A program made the position numbers and the translations under genes. Shown one piece after another: positions 29,783-37,088 of a stretch of 64,000 nt of DNA. The DNA is from an uncultured Chloroflexia bacterium (GTDB taxonomy: Bacteria; Chloroflexota; Chloroflexia; Thermomicrobiales; UBA6265), in NCBI GenBank assembly GCA_963712055.1, contig CAVQGN010000003.1:226758-290757 (forward strand), written 5' to 3'. How positions within the stretch are numbered: position 1 is the first letter of the stretch; every line of letters starts with the position of its first letter. The notes beneath the pieces are model-generated. The model was not told the DNA's origin. It saw only the letters and a program-made list of their open reading frames with translations, and searched no databases.

Positions 29783-30841
29783 GTGACTCGCGCTCCGTTT
29801 GCAGACACTGCTCGACAACTCCACGAAACCCTGACAGCGAATGGCGGCGGATTGTTTGATATTCGCGGCGAACCCCATCTCGAAACTCGCCTGGCGACTT
29901 CCGATAGTGGTGACGAGGATCGGACGTCAGGACCGGGTGTCGAGTCAACGATCACCTGGCTCGAACCGGAATCCCCGCTAGCGCACATCGTCCCAGACTG
30001 GGCACCTCCCTCCCTGGTTCGCTTTTTCCTGGACGGTTCCCAGCGCACGCTGCCGGGCTATTTCGTCGGGTCGATACCCGTTGTCGCGTCGATCGTGGCG
30101 GCAGCAGTACTCGATCGAAATGGACCTGACGGTCCCGCAATCATGCCAGGTATGGTGTCTACTCGCCGGGTTTGGATCGCACCACGCCGGTCGGGTGTGC
30201 AGGCTCTGCAGGATTTCACTCGCACAGCGGAGTCGCTTGGAATCGACGTGGTCGACCCGCTCGATGGCTTGGAGGAGACGGCGTACCAGCAGGCTCTGCA
30301 CGACTATCCACGCCTCGAACAACGCGCATATGCCAAAGCGCGCTCGATGCGTGCCGACCTTGAAACGTCGCTTTTCCACAAATGGCTGGATGAAACCGCT
30401 GGAAGCGATGACTGGATCGTCGTCGATGGCCCGCTCCGGAAAGACGCGGACCGATCGATCGGACTGGTCAAGTCGTACTCGCGCCAATATCTCGATGGCG
30501 CCAACGCGGCGGCGTTGCTCCAACTTCCAGCGGGATCGCGTTCGAGCGCGATCGAGGTTGACGATGGCTGGCGGCAGGGTCGCTACCGGGTCTGGTACCT
30601 GCGCATGCGGACTGCCCAGGGACGCGATCCTCGCCATGGTCTCGTCCGGATCGAAACCGGGTCCGACGTTACGACGCCGGGACCAGATGAAATCTCCCGC
30701 TGGATCCTCAATGAGAGTCGTCCGAGTGCCCGCAGTGACGAACGCTGGGCCACCCTCCTCTATCCGATCCACTATCTCGAACGAATTCTGCATCGATCGC
30801 TGGAGCGGGAAACACGTGGCTGGCCGCGAGGAACAGGCTAG
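29783..30841 (+). CDS. nurA: NurA-like nuclease (RNase H-fold 5'-3' exo/endonuclease family)
   Basis: By-eye NurA landmarks: FFLDGSQ (Asp at 30032-30034), WIVVDGPL (Asp at 30425-30427), VWYLRM..GLVRIETG, and C-terminal WATLLYPIHYLERILH. Ends 10 nt upstream of the HerA-like gene. Confidence 0.6.
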   Translation: MTRAPFADTARQLHETLTANGGGLFDIRGEPHLETRLATSDSGDEDRTSGPGVESTITWLEPESPLAHIVPDWAPPSLVRFFLDGSQRTLPGYFVGSIPVVASIVAAAVLDRNGPDGPAIMPGMVSTRRVWIAPRRSGVQALQDFTRTAESLGIDVVDPLDGLEETAYQQALHDYPRLEQRAYAKARSMRADLETSLFHKWLDETAGSDDWIVVDGPLRKDADRSIGLVKSYSRQYLDGANAAALLQLPAGSRSSAIEVDDGWRQGRYRVWYLRMRTAQGRDPRHGLVRIETGSDVTTPGPDEISRWILNESRPSARSDERWATLLYPIHYLERILHRSLERETRGWPRGTG

Positions 30842-30851
30842 ACTGACAGCC

Positions 30852-33023
30852 ATGGATGATCTGACGATGCCCGACTGGCTTCCCGAGTTTGACGAAAACG
30901 GTTTCGAAACAAGCCTTCAACCCTGGCTGGAGCGGACTGCCGCCTTTGAACCACTGATCGATCGTCAACACGGTCCGATCGGACGGGTTGTTGCCAGTGA
31001 ACGCGAACCATCTGGGTCGCATCAGTTCTTTTTCTGGGCCGGTGAAGATCAGCGCACCCTCGATGTCGGCCATATCATCGTCGCGTTTTCCGAGGATGCT
31101 GCTGTCATCGGTGTGGTCGATGAACCGCGCCGCTATTCAGACATGCGCTCGTTTCTCGACGACTTTTTCGATCGTCACATGGAAAACGCGCTCGAAAGCG
31201 AACCTCCCACCGCTCGTCCGGAAATCCTGGTGTTTCAAGTCAACGTCCTGCGCACGAAACACATCCGACCAGATGTCGATTCCCGCCGCCCGGTGATCGC
31301 TGGTCCGGTCTTTTTCGCCACCAACGAAGCAATCGACTTCGCGCTCGGACGAGATGGCTTCGGCGGCGTGCCGATCCCGGCTCTCCTCCATGTCAACGGC
31401 AACGCCCAGCGTGACGAGCACGGACAGCCACGCCGCGACGCGAACGGTAACGAGATCTTCCAGCGGTCCGCAATCTGGCTTGACGAAGACTATCTCCTCG
31501 GCCCTGAAGCCGGGCACGCGAACTGGACGGGTCAATCTGGTCTGGCAACCAAAACCAGTCACGCGCTTTTTCTGACCAGCGCCGTTTTCCAGCAACTCGA
31601 AAAAGAAGACAAGTCGGTCGCAGCATTGATGTTCAATGTCAAAGGACCAGACCTGATCTGGCTCGACAAACCAGCGACCCCGGATGACGATCTGGAGTCA
31701 GCGTTTGCGCGAGCGAATGTCAGCGGTCTGCCCGATCTCGATATCGAGGCATACGCCGCTCTCGGGCTCGAGATCAAACCGTTCGACAACTTCCGCCTCT
31801 TTGCGCCGTTCAAACCGGGCCAGGCACCGACTGGAACCTGGAACGATCCGGTTGTGTCGATGGCGAATGGCGACTACCGCTCGAACCTGAACACGCTGCG
31901 CGACAATCCCGCCCATCGCACCACCGTGTTTCCGATTCTCTGGGGGCTGCGGACCTTGCTGGCCAATCCCTATCAATTGTTCGACTTCAACGATCTCGAT
32001 GACAAACTTTGGGCGCTCATCGCCGAACTACGAGATCAAATCGGGGTCAAATCGCTGATCGAACTCCAGAAGACGCTCACGGAAGCCCTCACTGAACTCA
32101 CCGAAACGGGCGGCAGTGAATGGCGAAATCACCACAAGTTCACGATCCAGAAAGCGCTCAACCGCTTCGGCGGACTACCGACCAAGTTCGCCGGGTTGCT
32201 GACCGATGGCGAGGTGGACTACGGCAGACTGCCGAAAGTCGACGAACCCTTCAGCAACCAGGAAGTACGAGTCGTCGATATCGCAGGATGCAGCAGCAAT
32301 GTTCAGGAACTGATCGTTTCCAATGTCATCCAGCGCGTCTGGAGACTGGCGGAAAATCAGGAACTCGGGGTCAGCAAACTGATTGTTTTCGTCGACGAAT
32401 TGAACAAACATGCTCCCGCCGGTGGGCAAGGAGGTCTGCGCGACACACTCGTCGATATCGCCGCTCGTGGTCGCCATCTCAATGTTGTGCTCTTCGGTGC
32501 GCAGCAGTTTCGGTCCAAAGTCGATGGCGAGATTCTCGGCAATTGCGGCACCTCACTTTATGGTCGCGTCGGTGATGAAGAAATTATCAACAGTTCCTAT
32601 CGCTCGCTGAGTGAAACAACCAAGGCCGAACTCCTCGGATTACCCAAAGGGAGGTTGCTGGTGCGCCACGCACATTTCCGTGCGCCCCTCTTTGGGCTCT
32701 TCCCGAGACCACCGGTTATCCCCGGCATGGATGGACAACGGGTCTTCAACAACACCACTGCCGGAGAAGCGAATGCCTTCGGCCATCCGGGTGATCCGGT
32801 CTATTTCCTCCTCCGTGAACTCGGTGACACGAGTGGGGTGTCCAAGGGGATCGTCCGCACCGAAACCGAAGGGCTTACCCCGGAGGAAATCGAACAGATC
32901 TGCAACAAAGTACGTCTGTCCTGGCGAAGTAAGGTCGGCACATCCGCTGCCCGCCGGATTTCTCCCTGGTCGATGTGCCAGAACGCGATCAGAACCGTCA
33001 AAATGACGTCGACCCGGATCTGA
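30852..33023 (+). CDS. herA: HerA-like (DUF87/FtsK-HerA superfamily) hexameric ATPase/helicase homologue, 723 aa
   Basis: N-terminal barrel-like segment IGRVVASEREPSGSHQFFFWAGEDQRTLDVGHIIVAF..VIGVVDE. P-loop position HANWTGQSGLATKTS, Walker B KLIVFVDELNKHAP, and ARGRHLNVVLFGAQQ. The track ORF 5' part (30081-30851) overlaps nurA out of frame and is discounted. Confidence 0.7.
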   Translation: MDDLTMPDWLPEFDENGFETSLQPWLERTAAFEPLIDRQHGPIGRVVASEREPSGSHQFFFWAGEDQRTLDVGHIIVAFSEDAAVIGVVDEPRRYSDMRSFLDDFFDRHMENALESEPPTARPEILVFQVNVLRTKHIRPDVDSRRPVIAGPVFFATNEAIDFALGRDGFGGVPIPALLHVNGNAQRDEHGQPRRDANGNEIFQRSAIWLDEDYLLGPEAGHANWTGQSGLATKTSHALFLTSAVFQQLEKEDKSVAALMFNVKGPDLIWLDKPATPDDDLESAFARANVSGLPDLDIEAYAALGLEIKPFDNFRLFAPFKPGQAPTGTWNDPVVSMANGDYRSNLNTLRDNPAHRTTVFPILWGLRTLLANPYQLFDFNDLDDKLWALIAELRDQIGVKSLIELQKTLTEALTELTETGGSEWRNHHKFTIQKALNRFGGLPTKFAGLLTDGEVDYGRLPKVDEPFSNQEVRVVDIAGCSSNVQELIVSNVIQRVWRLAENQELGVSKLIVFVDELNKHAPAGGQGGLRDTLVDIAARGRHLNVVLFGAQQFRSKVDGEILGNCGTSLYGRVGDEEIINSSYRSLSETTKAELLGLPKGRLLVRHAHFRAPLFGLFPRPPVIPGMDGQRVFNNTTAGEANAFGHPGDPVYFLLRELGDTSGVSKGIVRTETEGLTPEEIEQICNKVRLSWRSKVGTSAARRISPWSMCQNAIRTVKMTSTRI

Positions 33024-33048: not shown

Positions 33049-34248
33049 GTGGCATCTCTCCGCATCGCTCATCTGGCCGATACGCATCTCGGTTATCGCG
33101 CGCTCAGCAAAACCGATCCGCTGACTGGCCGCAACCAACGCTCCGAAGATATCGAGCGAGCGTTCGTGCGCACGATCGATGACCTGCTCGAACGGGACAT
33201 CGATCTCGTGATCCATGCTGGCGATCTCTTTCAGCACCCGCGTCCGGTTTTTCCGGCGATCAGTCTAGCGATCCGGCAGTTTCGACGCTTGGAAGCGGCC
33301 GGCATTCCGACAGTGGTGATCGGTGGCAACCACGATACCCCGCGGATGCGTGCGAGTGGTTCGGTGTTTGGACTGCTTGCGGTCGCGCTGCCGGATATCA
33401 CGTTTGCCGGTGGCTACGAGATGATCCCCCACCCCTTACCAGAACTCGACATCACCCTGATGCTGATGCCACATGGAAGTCTGACCAATCCGGAACCACC
33501 GATACCCCTGCCAGTTGGCAGCGGACGCAACATTCTCGTCACACACGGTCTCGCTCCAAGTGTCGATCTCGACGCCGTTCGGCGGGAACCGGGTGAAGAA
33601 GCGCTCTCCGACGAAATGCTCGACGCTGGGTTCGACTACATTGCGCTCGGTCACTATCACGCTTTCCATCAACCTGCTGGCGTCGCCAACGCGTGGTATT
33701 CCGGCGCCACCGAACGAATGGGATGGGGTGATCAGCAGAACGTACCCGGGTATGCGTTGGTCGAACTCGGTGATGAACCGAAAAAGCGAACCGTCACCCA
33801 TGTCCCGCTGCCGGTCCGACCGATGGAGCAAATCGACATTCCAGCTCATCTCTCGGTCGATGATGACCCTGAAGCAATCGCTGCCTTGGCTATCGAGCGG
33901 ATAGCCGCGCTTTCCGAACCGGACGCCATGGTCCGGGTGATGCTTGGCTCGGTATCGCGCACGACCAAACGACGAGCCGAATCGTTGATTCAGGAAGCCG
34001 GTCGCGATCTCGTCTGGTCGATTCAGGTCGTTTCGCGCTCAGATCAATTCGCGGGCTTTGCCAACAGCCGTGCCGATCTGCCGAGTATTGATCTCCTCGA
34101 TCAATTCTCGGCGTTCATCGACCAGCGTCTTGCCAGCGGCGATTACGACCAGGCGTTTGCCGACGCGTTTCGCGAGACTGGCACGGCCGAACTGAAACAT
34201 GCGATCGAACAAGCGAACGAGGCGATCGGCGAGGAAGTCGCGCCATGA
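33049..34248 (+). CDS. mre11: Mre11/SbcD-family metallophosphoesterase nuclease
   Basis: All phosphoesterase motifs are present: HLADTHLG, HAGDLF, GGNHD, LVTHG, LGHYH. Confidence 0.85.
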   Translation: MASLRIAHLADTHLGYRALSKTDPLTGRNQRSEDIERAFVRTIDDLLERDIDLVIHAGDLFQHPRPVFPAISLAIRQFRRLEAAGIPTVVIGGNHDTPRMRASGSVFGLLAVALPDITFAGGYEMIPHPLPELDITLMLMPHGSLTNPEPPIPLPVGSGRNILVTHGLAPSVDLDAVRREPGEEALSDEMLDAGFDYIALGHYHAFHQPAGVANAWYSGATERMGWGDQQNVPGYALVELGDEPKKRTVTHVPLPVRPMEQIDIPAHLSVDDDPEAIAALAIERIAALSEPDAMVRVMLGSVSRTTKRRAESLIQEAGRDLVWSIQVVSRSDQFAGFANSRADLPSIDLLDQFSAFIDQRLASGDYDQAFADAFRETGTAELKHAIEQANEAIGEEVAP

Positions 34249-37088
34249 ACCTGGTCGAGGTCGAGCTCACGAACTATCGCCAGTTCAGTGGAACGCATAT
34301 CTTTTCCCCCGGGGAGCAAGCCATGGTGGCGATCCTGGGTGAAAACGGCGCCGGAAAAACGACCCTGTTCGAATCGATCGAGTGGTGTCTCTTCGCTCCG
34401 AATGCGATCAAACGCGATGACATCCGCAACCGCGTCTATCCCGGCAATCCTCGAGTAAGGGTCGTGCTCGAGAATCCCACCACCGGCGAACGATTCGAAA
34501 TCGAAAGGGAGTCGAAGAAAACCACAACCGAGGCCGCGGTCTATCGCGCCGACAACCCCACGGCGCCACTCGTCCAGGGAACGCGCCCGGTGTCGGAATA
34601 TGTTGCCCGCCAACTCCTGGGTATGAGTCACCAGGCCTTTTCGGCCACATTTCTCACTCGCCAGAAAGAACTCGGGTTTTTCGGATCGCTCAAGCCGACC
34701 GATCGGCGACGCGAAGTCGGCAAACTCCTCGGGCTGGAAACGATTCGGACGGCCCAGGAAGCGATCAGTAAGCGACGGCTGGAAAAACAGTCAGAAGCCA
34801 GAGCGAAAACGAGTCGGGTCGAGGAAGTCGCGGCGGAACGCGATTTCGAGAAAGAGTCGACGGCGATCGACAACCGGATCGCAACCGCCTCGCTGGAGGT
34901 CGGACTGCAGCAAACGGCTCTCGCCAGCGCAGATCTCCGTCTGAACAACGCCCGTGCTGCTGTCACTCGGGCCTCGCAACGGCGGGAGGAGCATTCCAAT
35001 CTCCAGCTCGTCCAAACCAAGATCGAAGGAGAACTGCGCAGGGTCAAATCGTCGATCGAGTCGCTCGAAAAGCAGCAGCATGATCTGGATCGAGACGCCA
35101 TCCGGTTGGTTGACCTTCGTCCTATTGCGGCGACTGAATCCGATCTGATCAAGCGGATGGAAGACCATAGCCTCGCGCTCGACCAACGGCGACAGCGAAT
35201 CGCTTTGACCGAGCAGATCACCAGACTCGATGACGATCTCAAACAGGTCGCGGAGAATGTCGAACAGATCGAGGTCCAGTTTTGGGACGGTGAACAGACC
35301 GGCCTGCGGATTGCCGAGTCTCCACCCAGCGAATCGACGGTCCGCCTGCAAGCGCTGTTGAAACGTGCTGTCGAAGCAGACCCCGGCGGTGCGGAAGCAA
35401 CCCTGAACCATCTGACCGCCTGTATCGACGCCGAGAAAGGGCTGACCGCCGCCCAGACCACACTCAAACGCTATGAAGACGTGATCGCGGGAATTCATCG
35501 TGAGATCGAACGTCTCCTCGAGCATGGTGATCCTGCTGATGCCATTTCCGCACTGGAGCAGCAGCTTCAGGAGATCCGTGAACAGCGCGCGGCTGACGCA
35601 GCCACGAACAAGACGGCCACAACCGATCGTGATCGCTTGACCACGATGCGCCAACGGCTTCTCGAGGAAGCGGACGACACCGAATCGTGTCCCACCTGCA
35701 ATCGCCCCTTCGGGCCTGGCGAACGTGATGGCTATCTGACCACCCTCGGCAATCAGATTCGCGAGCTCAGCGCGACCATCACCACGACGTCCGCGACCAT
35801 CGAGTCCTGCCGAACGAAAGAGAAAACGCTCGATACTCAGCTCCAGATACTGGCGGAGCGCAGGACCCAGCTCGACAAGAATCGCGTGCGTCTGACCGAG
35901 AGCAAGCGACCGATGGAGGAAGCAACCGCAGCGGTCGCAGAGGCGGAAGCGATCTTGGCAGACGCTCTGCAATCAGCCGGACGCGGTTCTTTTCCGTCCG
36001 ATGCAGACATCGAGGCTGCCCGCCAAGCCCTGGATCGGGTGAGGCATCGCGCCGGGCAATCTGATCGCATCCACGATCTCCTCCAACAGCAGGAACGCTG
36101 CTCCAACAGTCGTGAAATGGCCACCAGGCAGCTGACGGCCCTCGGTCCGGACACCTATGATCAGAAGTCGCACAAGGACGACGAACGACAACTGCTACGA
36201 GTCCGCGAGGCGGTTACGCAAATCCGCGAAATCGAGGCACGCCTGCTCCAGCGTCCAGCGTTGGAAACCTCACTAATCGATGCACGAACAGAAGCAGAGA
36301 AGCTTTCGGAATCCCTTGCTGGCAGCAACTCCGCGCTGCAGGCATTCGGTTTCGATCCTGATGAGCATCCACTCGCCAGCGCAGAGGAAGCGACTGCCCT
36401 GAGATCGAGACAGGATGCATCAGATCGTCTGAATTCGATCACCCGCGAGCTCGACGCCGCTCAGCGGGATCAAGCTCAGATCAAAAAAGACCAGGATCTG
36501 TTTGAGCGCTATCGAGTCGAGTCAGAAGCAGCCCAAGCCGAGGCCGAGCGCCTGAGCCGGATGTACACAGAGTTCAATTTGTTCGACAAGTTCGTCGCTC
36601 AGTCGATCGCGCCGGCGCTCGCCGATCTGACGGGTCAGATGGTCGCCGAAGTTACCGAAGGCAAATACGACCGGGTCGAGTTCGATGACGATTTTGGCGT
36701 GCGGGTCTTTGACGGTAACGACGATAGCTTCCCGCTCGAGCAGTTTTCCGGCGGTGAACGCGATGTCGTCGCGCTTTGTGCTCGCCTGGCGCTGTCGCAA
36801 CTGATCGGCGGCAGTGGCCATCATCCGCTCCAGTTCGTGGTGCTCGATGAGGTATTTGGATCGCTCGATCAGGTCCGCCGTCAGAATCTGATGGAAACAC
36901 TCCAACGACTGGTCGGAGATGGTGGTCCGTTCCGGCAGTTGTTCGCCATCAGTCATGTCGACGACATTCAGAACAGCCCGGCGTTCGACGAAGCCTGGAA
37001 AATCACCGAAGGGGCTGATGGTATCAGTGTGCTCGAACGGCTGTCCAGCCATCCCACTCTGGCTGGCGGTCAAACAACGATCGACTAA
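34245..37088 (+). CDS. rad50: Rad50/SbcC-family SMC-like ATPase with zinc hook
   Basis: Walker A GENGAGKTT, Q-loop TRQKE, central CPTC zinc hook within long coiled-coil sequence, signature FSGGERDV, Walker B FVVLDEVFGSLD, H-loop ISHV. ATGA overlap with mre11. Confidence 0.9.
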   Translation: MNLVEVELTNYRQFSGTHIFSPGEQAMVAILGENGAGKTTLFESIEWCLFAPNAIKRDDIRNRVYPGNPRVRVVLENPTTGERFEIERESKKTTTEAAVYRADNPTAPLVQGTRPVSEYVARQLLGMSHQAFSATFLTRQKELGFFGSLKPTDRRREVGKLLGLETIRTAQEAISKRRLEKQSEARAKTSRVEEVAAERDFEKESTAIDNRIATASLEVGLQQTALASADLRLNNARAAVTRASQRREEHSNLQLVQTKIEGELRRVKSSIESLEKQQHDLDRDAIRLVDLRPIAATESDLIKRMEDHSLALDQRRQRIALTEQITRLDDDLKQVAENVEQIEVQFWDGEQTGLRIAESPPSESTVRLQALLKRAVEADPGGAEATLNHLTACIDAEKGLTAAQTTLKRYEDVIAGIHREIERLLEHGDPADAISALEQQLQEIREQRAADAATNKTATTDRDRLTTMRQRLLEEADDTESCPTCNRPFGPGERDGYLTTLGNQIRELSATITTTSATIESCRTKEKTLDTQLQILAERRTQLDKNRVRLTESKRPMEEATAAVAEAEAILADALQSAGRGSFPSDADIEAARQALDRVRHRAGQSDRIHDLLQQQERCSNSREMATRQLTALGPDTYDQKSHKDDERQLLRVREAVTQIREIEARLLQRPALETSLIDARTEAEKLSESLAGSNSALQAFGFDPDEHPLASAEEATALRSRQDASDRLNSITRELDAAQRDQAQIKKDQDLFERYRVESEAAQAEAERLSRMYTEFNLFDKFVAQSIAPALADLTGQMVAEVTEGKYDRVEFDDDFGVRVFDGNDDSFPLEQFSGGERDVVALCARLALSQLIGGSGHHPLQFVVLDEVFGSLDQVRRQNLMETLQRLVGDGGPFRQLFAISHVDDIQNSPAFDEAWKITEGADGISVLERLSSHPTLAGGQTTID

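Follow-up and report, generated by a model that had tools for sequence, protein, structure and literature searches.

The window analysed here is the whole 64,000-nucleotide stretch of contig CAVQGN010000003.1 from an uncultured Chloroflexia bacterium. Our subject within it is herA, a gene encoding a 723-residue ATPase in which the nucleotide-binding loop (Walker A motif, or P-loop) departs from the canonical consensus. The protein is a member of the bacterial-type HerA family, the part of the FtsK-HerA superfamily to which HerA of Deinococcus radiodurans (drHerA) belongs; the variant loop is typical of this family and has been little remarked. The gene and its motifs are as follows:

30852..33023, + strand: herA, bacterial-type HerA ATPase/translocase, 723 residues; start ATG 30852, alternative start GTG 30816
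31530..31559, + strand: variant Walker A/P-loop, G227-Q-S-G-L-A-T-K234-T235-S236; aligned to drHerA G168..K175-T176-S177
31632..31655, + strand: FNVKGPDL, with Lys264 and Asp267; aligned to drHerA Lys217 and Asp220
32385..32417, + strand: Walker B VFVDELNKHAP, residues 512-522, with Asp515/Glu516; corresponds to drHerA Asp487/Glu488
32463..32477, + strand: ARGRH, residues 538-542, with the arginine finger Arg541; corresponds to the trans-acting Arg513 of drHerA

Translation of 30852-33023 on the forward strand places TGQSGLATKTS at residues 226-236 (31527-31559), exactly where a preliminary description of this DNA had put it. That description had claimed that the protein contains neither a GK dipeptide nor a canonical Walker A, and a script scan agrees: across the 723 residues there are zero GK dipeptides and zero matches to [AG]xxxxGK[ST]. 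Its rendering of the loop as G-x2-G-x3-K-T is right. K[ST] dipeptides occur at four positions only (K234, K254, K400 and K407), and none in the 723 residues other than K234-T235 stands in a P-loop context. The canonical motif, GxxxxGK[ST], spans eight residues and has glycine before the lysine; the loop in the window spans nine and has threonine there. The Walker B sequence had also been read correctly, although the region given for it (32388-32420) is corrected here to 32385-32417, and the context of the arginine finger is intact as claimed, R541 aligning with R513 of drHerA. Two points are absent from that description: the loop exceeds the canonical form by one residue, and a nucleotide-bound structure from the family already exists.

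A database copy of the protein (P0002) has 735 residues and starts 12 codons upstream of ATG 30852, at GTG 30816. This start is preceded by GGAG at a distance of 10 nucleotides and would cause the herA reading frame to overlap the 3′-end of nurA by 26 nucleotides. Its adoption adds 12 to all residue numbers and leaves nucleotide coordinates unaffected.

Membership of the bacterial-type family is evident from the single sequence: a phmmer search matched drHerA (7f6d_B; also 7wrw and 7wrx) in two stretches with an E value of 1.8e-32, and in the pairwise alignment the two loops correspond residue for residue (GqSGlATKTS in the window, GiSGvATKTS in drHerA). A profile built from an alignment of 75 diverse HerA-family relatives (A1) matched drHerA (7f6d) over its full length, profile positions 6-546, with an E value of 1.2e-134. 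Matches of the same profile to canonical HerAs were far weaker (6.8e-20 for 9x1l of T. kodakarensis, 7.8e-10 for 4d2i of S. solfataricus), as were those to HerAs from defence systems (1e-8 to 1e-11). An AlphaFold2 model of the window protein (mean predicted local distance difference test score, pLDDT, 88.4; predicted template modelling score 0.84) gave as its top Foldseek matches 7wrw and 7wrx, that is, drHerA and drHerA with adenosine diphosphate (ADP), with E values of ∼1e-37, target-normalised template modelling scores of 0.72-0.73 and 646-663 aligned columns; the HerAs of T. kodakarensis and S. solfataricus came next. From the full-length match, the predicted architecture would comprise an N-terminal HAS-barrel, a RecA-like core of the ASCE (additional strand, catalytic E) class and an inserted helix-bundle. 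The window protein is thus an additional member of an already known and structurally characterised family. Its nearest named homologues, among the matches listed, are from Thermomicrobiales, and the genome holds a single herA copy.

A helical extension of ∼85 residues follows at the C-terminus (residues ∼640-723, window ∼32770-33020), with helices at 649-656, 665-672, 677-694 and 705-722 and pLDDT values of 65-85. It reaches past the ends of drHerA and of the Gemmatimonadota homologues and is common to the Thermomicrobiales and Rubrobacter-type homologues, which align up to query residues ∼710-720.

Standard domain models give little hint of this identity. The Pfam and NCBIfam HerA models returned no match to the single window sequence even at E values up to 10; the gathering threshold of PF01935 (DUF87, ‘Helicase HerA central domain’) was not reached, and the best PF01935 matches in the whole genome fall elsewhere than herA and are all below the cut-off. 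Among the 75 members of A1, at E≤0.01, DUF87/PF01935 registers in five and the HAS-barrel in ten. At E≤1e-10 five control genomes give PF01935 matches, but D. radiodurans and T. thermophilus give none. Public records label the family merely ‘ATP-binding protein’ or ‘hypothetical’.

The loop, which across the family reads G-x-S-G-x-A-[TAS]-K-[TS]-S, is a canonical Walker A with one residue added between strand β1 and the lysine. Three independent alignments place the gap identically. HMMER opens a one-residue deletion in 9x1l relative to the A1 profile (‘GiSGlAtKTS’ against ‘avtGa-gKsn’); with MAFFT, ten canonical DUF87/HerA proteins drawn from Chloroflexota genomes ([AG]xTG-xGKS) take one gap against GxSGxxxKTS; and hhalign, comparing the family with six canonical DUF87/HerA proteins (probability 99.4%, E value 1.8e-21, 480 columns), introduces the same single gap. 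Structural models point to the same place. Secondary structure assigned with DSSP to the window model has β1 at 223-226, a loop of seven residues (227-233) and a helix starting at K234, with a pLDDT of ∼95 in the loop region; in the model of P0250, a relative with a canonical loop (pLDDT 90.1), β1 occupies 187-191, and a loop of six residues leads to the helix, which begins at K198. Since the end of the strand and the start of the helix keep equal register in both models, the extra residue lies within the loop itself.

Conservation of the loop was assessed at three depths. The ten residues GQSGLATKTS are identical in 120 of the 120 near homologues listed (58-100% identity; P0002, the window's own protein, is among them), and none of these carries the canonical GSGKS that the preliminary description had named as a sign of sequence error. 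A more diverse set was drawn from the best 150 cluster representatives at 50% identity, 94 of which have at least 500 residues; P0124, which lacks the N-terminal half, was left out, so that 93 were counted. The loop has nine residues in 87 of them and eight in the other six. Fifty-six shorter fragments stand outside this count; nine of these span the loop, and all nine have the nine-residue form. Within the group of 87, G227 and K234 are present in all, G230 in 86, A232 in 82 and S236 in 84; position 229 is Ser in 79 (Thr in seven, Ala in one), position 235 is Thr in 79 (Ser in seven, Asn in one), and position 233, immediately before the lysine, is Thr in 43, Ala in 29, Ser in 11, Cys in two and Gly in two. 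Single departures are the Arg at the second glycine of P0212 and the Asn in place of Thr in P0224. Finally, genomes were scanned, one for each species, with a 12-sequence alignment as query; at least 586 relatives were found among 600 matched stretches, and the variant loop is present in 80 of 80 loci inspected, these being the best 80 of the at least 586. By record title the 80 loci divide as follows:

Chloroflexota-type: 7
Rubrobacter-type Actinomycetota: 8
Armatimonadota: 3
Gemmatimonadota: 62

The variant loop is therefore the norm for the bacterial-type HerA family in the four phyla sampled, and the conservation within its clade that the preliminary description had proposed to look for is borne out by alignment at all three depths. 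These counts also dispose of two other ideas: that a mistake in local sequencing or assembly produced the odd loop, and that some other segment of the protein is the true P-loop. The departure from consensus is all that speaks for either idea. Error is ruled out by an identical ten-residue loop in 120 of 120 homologues listed, from independent assemblies, and by the 80 variant loci; the segment cannot well be placed outside the nucleotide-binding loop when it aligns with the Walker A of drHerA and sits, in a confidently modelled region, between β1 and α1 of the RecA-like core. The protein offers no other K[ST] in a suitable context and the genome no second herA. We regard the chance of either as negligible.

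What such a loop does is best judged from drHerA, for which a 3.4 Å structure with ADP has been described. Passages of that paper (PMC9960219) place the Walker A between β1 and α1, name it as such with its ‘conserved lysine’, and describe K175 as contacting the β-phosphate of ADP, T176 as binding Mg2+ and D487/E488 as coordinating Mg2+; D220, at the end of β2, is given as the catalytic acid, and the γ-phosphate is presumed to be contacted by K217, by R513 acting in trans and by R154 from the neighbouring subunit. The same source reports, second-hand from Cheng 2015, that mutations of K175 and of D487/E488 impair ATPase activity and resection. It further describes a hexameric ring, an ATPase stimulated by DNA and NurA, and translocation on double-stranded DNA, properties that are in part also described for Thermus HepA (PMC5448004). 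The equivalent residues, obtained by counting along the pairwise alignment of the window protein with drHerA, are:

drHerA K175 / T176: window K234 / T235, conserved
drHerA K217: window K264, conserved
drHerA D220: window D267, conserved
drHerA D487 / E488: window D515 / E516, conserved
drHerA R513: window R541, conserved
drHerA R154: window D213 (31488-31490), differs; the column varies D/E/R/K in the family
drHerA R495, DNA-binding in the pore: window A523 (32418-32420), differs; the column varies S/K/R/A in the family

The conserved residues are conserved well beyond this pair. All 93 representatives have K264 and D267, 92 have R541 and 91 have D515 and E516; G227, G230, K234, K264, D267, D515, E516 and R541 are invariant in the 75 sequences of A1. 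By analogy with K175 and T176 of drHerA, Lys234 would bind the β- and γ-phosphates and Thr235 the metal ion, and Asp515/Glu516, the catalytic acid Asp267, Lys264 and the trans-acting Arg541 would complete a site at the subunit interface of a ring-forming DNA translocase of the FtsK-HerA superfamily. The suggestion that the loop is a lineage-specific variant that still binds ATP finds support both in the alignment with drHerA, where the roles of K175/T176 are described, and in conservation across the family.

The opposite reading takes the protein to be a HerA-like scaffold with impaired or absent catalysis whose sole role is to organise NurA, Mre11 and Rad50, the loss of GK[ST] marking decay of its ATP site. 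Three observations lean that way: the window protein has no canonical Walker A; its counterparts of drHerA Arg154 and Arg495 are not conserved; and basal ATPase activity in relatives is low, at 0.05 turnovers per second for Thermus HepA (PMC5448004) and, for drHerA with Mg2+, slower than S. solfataricus HerA by a factor of 10 to 100, though faster with Mn2+ (PMC9960219). The loop, however, is strongly constrained rather than decaying (in the group of 87, G227 and K234 in all, G230 in 86, and Thr or Ser at position 235 in 86), and diverse relatives show little or no variation in the Walker B, in Lys264, in the catalytic Asp or in the arginine finger. Moreover drHerA, with an equal loop, binds ADP-Mg and has an ATPase that is stimulated 70-fold by NurA plus double-stranded DNA and abolished by Walker mutants (PMC9960219). 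Because every family-invariant catalytic residue is present and an equal loop has been seen with nucleotide in drHerA, an inactive scaffold is very unlikely.

Beyond herA itself, the neighbouring genes bear on function. They are:

29783..30841, + strand: nurA, bacterial-type NurA nuclease, 352 residues; A3 profile match to drNurA
33049..34248, + strand: mre11, SbcD/Mre11-type phosphoesterase, 399 residues; Pfam Metallophos, E value 1.3e-14
34245..37088, + strand: rad50, SbcC/Rad50-type SMC-like ATPase, 947 residues; Pfam SMC_N, E value 2.9e-16, and SbcC_Walker_B, E value 1.1e-8

As a single sequence the nurA product has no Pfam, NCBIfam or PDB match. A profile of this product and 24 syntenic homologues (A3, 25 sequences in all) matches D. 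radiodurans NurA (7f6d_H) with an E value of 9e-10 and T. maritima TM1739 (1zup) with an E value of 1.9e-7. For the rad50 product, the Pfam Rad50_zn_hook model scores an E value of 0.0015, below the model cut-off, and a CxxC hook-like motif is present. With the A3 match upstream and the Pfam matches downstream, the locus reads nurA-herA-mre11-rad50, an operon in a Thermomicrobiales-like genome. The ATG of rad50 overlaps the stop of mre11 by four nucleotides (34245-34248), which suggests translational coupling of the two genes.

This gene order is not peculiar to the window. Synteny was counted in the best 80 loci; upstream sequence exceeds 1.2 kb in 69 of these and downstream sequence 5.5 kb in 51. 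In 62 of the 69 a same-strand nurA homologue ends within 400 bp of herA on its upstream side. Of the 51, 48 have mre11 downstream on the strand of herA, 46 have rad50 downstream and 46 have both, with mre11 starting less than 600 bp from herA in 21 loci. Linkage of the nurA-herA pair to mre11-rad50 spans Chloroflexota, Rubrobacter-type Actinomycetota, Gemmatimonadota and Armatimonadota. PMC9960219 confines NurA-HerA among bacteria to a few, with Deinococcus-Thermus given as the example; the family and its linkage to mre11-rad50 are far more widespread in bacteria than is stated there.

HerA-like ATPases are also found in anti-phage systems, and it has to be asked whether the four genes form a defence module of the SIR2-HerA, DUF4297-HerA or MADS type rather than a housekeeping repair operon; the variant loop would in that case be one of a defence ATPase. 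The PADLOC model mad8 (MADS) does match residues 374-607 (31971-32672) with an E value of 8.4e-11, and the fold search also brings up defence HerAs, with E values of 1e-16 to 1e-19; the PADLOC HerA model is weaker (E value 0.0037). The mad8 match is, however, limited to the C-terminal ATPase half, and drHerA and the archaeal repair HerAs match far better. HerA is accompanied by NurA, Mre11 and Rad50, the same combination as in the repair operon of archaea; there is no SIR2, DUF4297 or methylase gene inside the four-gene cluster, genes further out not having been screened for defence functions. The order of the genes is kept across the same four phyla, and conservation of this breadth would fit core genes better than defence islands. 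There is a small chance that the cluster serves defence; the partners and the cross-phylum conservation favour repair.

Together the above analyses make it very probable that the window protein is a functional bacterial-type HerA with a family-typical P-loop, acting with NurA, and probably with Mre11-Rad50, in DNA-end resection. Homology, fold, loop length and conservation are established here. By homology we infer nucleotide binding, hydrolysis, hexamer formation and partnership with NurA: HerA would work with the NurA encoded by the adjoining upstream gene in the resection of DNA ends, and the Mre11-Rad50 encoded downstream would probably join in.

Several points weigh against this conclusion. 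Identity to the Deinococcus proteins is low, from ∼22% (structure-based) to 28% (in A1, to P0229 of D. maricopensis). Asp213 and Ala523 stand where drHerA has Arg154 and Arg495; because both columns vary across the family, contacts of these two types would not be family-wide. Loop geometry, meaning the contacts of the backbone NH groups, is deduced solely from DSSP strings, and the authors of the 3.4 Å drHerA-ADP structure do not discuss it in the passages of PMC9960219 that deal with the loop. Lastly, the poor activity of drHerA with Mg2+ means that, by analogy, an ‘active’ window protein may be one that is weakly active unless stimulated.

The six diverse representatives with an eight-residue loop raise the question of how its length evolved. 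Four of them have a canonical GxSG[FY]GKT (P0250, P0252, P0257 and P0262), P0270 has GKTGFTKT, and P0251 has GMSGAAKS. All but P0251 group together in a single clade (support 99-100); P0251 falls inside a different one, where its shorter loop arose separately. Of the five, P0250 and P0252 carry the names of Lokiarchaeota and Sigynarchaeota proteins, and Pfam DUF87 recognises none of the five canonical-loop members scanned. Three trees were rooted with canonical DUF87 proteins as outgroup (FastTree, 104 rows; IQ-TREE with the posterior mean site frequency model, 54 hand-picked rows; IQ-TREE with LG+G4, 33 rows). All three nest the five-member clade within the nine-residue family, with unstarred support of 82-93. 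However, placement of the clade beside the outgroup is not rejected by an approximately unbiased (AU) test on the 33 rows with LG+G4 (log-likelihood difference 8.14, p-AU 0.234), and FastTree warns that long branches meet, the outgroup joining beside the long Deinococcus-type branch. The loop was lengthened either once, at the root of the bacterial family, or by an insertion that later reverted.

It is conceivable, if rather unlikely, that the extra residue is a derived, family-defining change that retuned the motor, and that the archaeal subclade containing the Asgard proteins regained the canonical loop by a one-residue deletion. An enlarged phosphate-binding nest and the replacement of the glycine before the lysine would then give a low basal ATPase, a preference for Mn2+ and hydrolysis strongly dependent on NurA and DNA. 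If true, the loop would act as a brake built into the motor, tying the use of fuel to engagement of the substrate, and the archaeal subclade a rare documented reversal of P-loop length. Whatever the direction of change, the occurrence of nine-residue and canonical eight-residue members within one family is a natural experiment on P-loop length and on the glycine before the lysine, and it bears on how P-loops handle nucleotide and metal.

The departure of the loop from consensus has attracted little comment. The Walker and P-loop passages and section 5 of PMC9960219 carry no remark on it, nor does the garbled text of the supplementary HerA alignment hold one on the Walker A. A literature search for the loop's motif strings found nothing, although Cheng 2015 and Iyer et al. 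2004 may mention the loop, and among the matches listed for HerA with a non-canonical ‘Walker A’, no title or abstract concerns the Walker A of HerA. The practical consequence is one of annotation: the window protein escapes both motif scans for GxxxxGK[ST] and the HerA models of Pfam and NCBIfam, so that a whole bacterial module for DNA-end resection is annotated only as ‘ATP-binding’ or ‘hypothetical’. The nine-residue loop G-x-S-G-x-A-x-K-[ST] is a signature of bacterial-type HerA and offers annotators a simple marker.

Among known systems the closest is drHerA, whose structures are available without ligand (PDB 7WRW), with ADP (7WRX) and with NurA (7F6D; Yang et al., BMC Biol 2023, PMC9960219). 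The two proteins share a family over their full length, the fold, the nine-residue Walker A G-x-S-G-x-A-T-K-T-S, the Walker B DELNK.AP, the RGR arginine finger, the FNVKG.DL motif and an adjacent bacterial-type nurA. They differ in sequence (∼22% identity in the structure-based alignment) and in size, the window protein being ∼100 residues longer with its C-terminal helical extension (residues ∼640-723) and an insert near residues 183-205; Asp213 and Ala523 replace Arg154 and Arg495. In the window herA is followed by mre11-rad50, whereas the nurA-herA pair of D. radiodurans is not known to adjoin its sbcCD genes.

Other departures from the Walker A consensus belong to active P-loop ATPases: MCM-type motifs have Ala or Ser before the lysine (GDPxx[AS]KS), and the ‘deviant’ motif of ParA/MinD reads KGGxxGK[ST]. 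Both keep the standard eight-residue spacing; relative to these motifs, the window loop is lengthened by one residue. P0251 has an MCM-like eight-residue loop with Ala before the lysine (GMSGAAKS), and is itself a family member. The defence HerAs (SIR2-HerA and DUF4297-HerA; PDB 8WLD, 8ZIR and 8XAU) share the superfamily fold, and the mad8 profile is matched in part, but these matches are much weaker than those to the repair HerAs, and the defence HerAs are partnered by SIR2 or DUF4297 rather than by NurA, Mre11 and Rad50. Canonical bacterial DUF87/HerA proteins (PF01935) are clear remote homologues (hhalign probability 99.4%); in them, as in archaeal HerA, the loop has eight residues, [AG]-x-T-G-x-G-K-S, to which the window protein adds one residue and in which it has Thr for Gly before the lysine. 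With archaeal HerA (S. solfataricus 4D2I; T. kodakarensis 9X1L/9X1M) it shares the HAS-barrel, RecA-like and helix-bundle architecture, the NurA partner and the linkage to mre11-rad50 seen in the archaeal operon.

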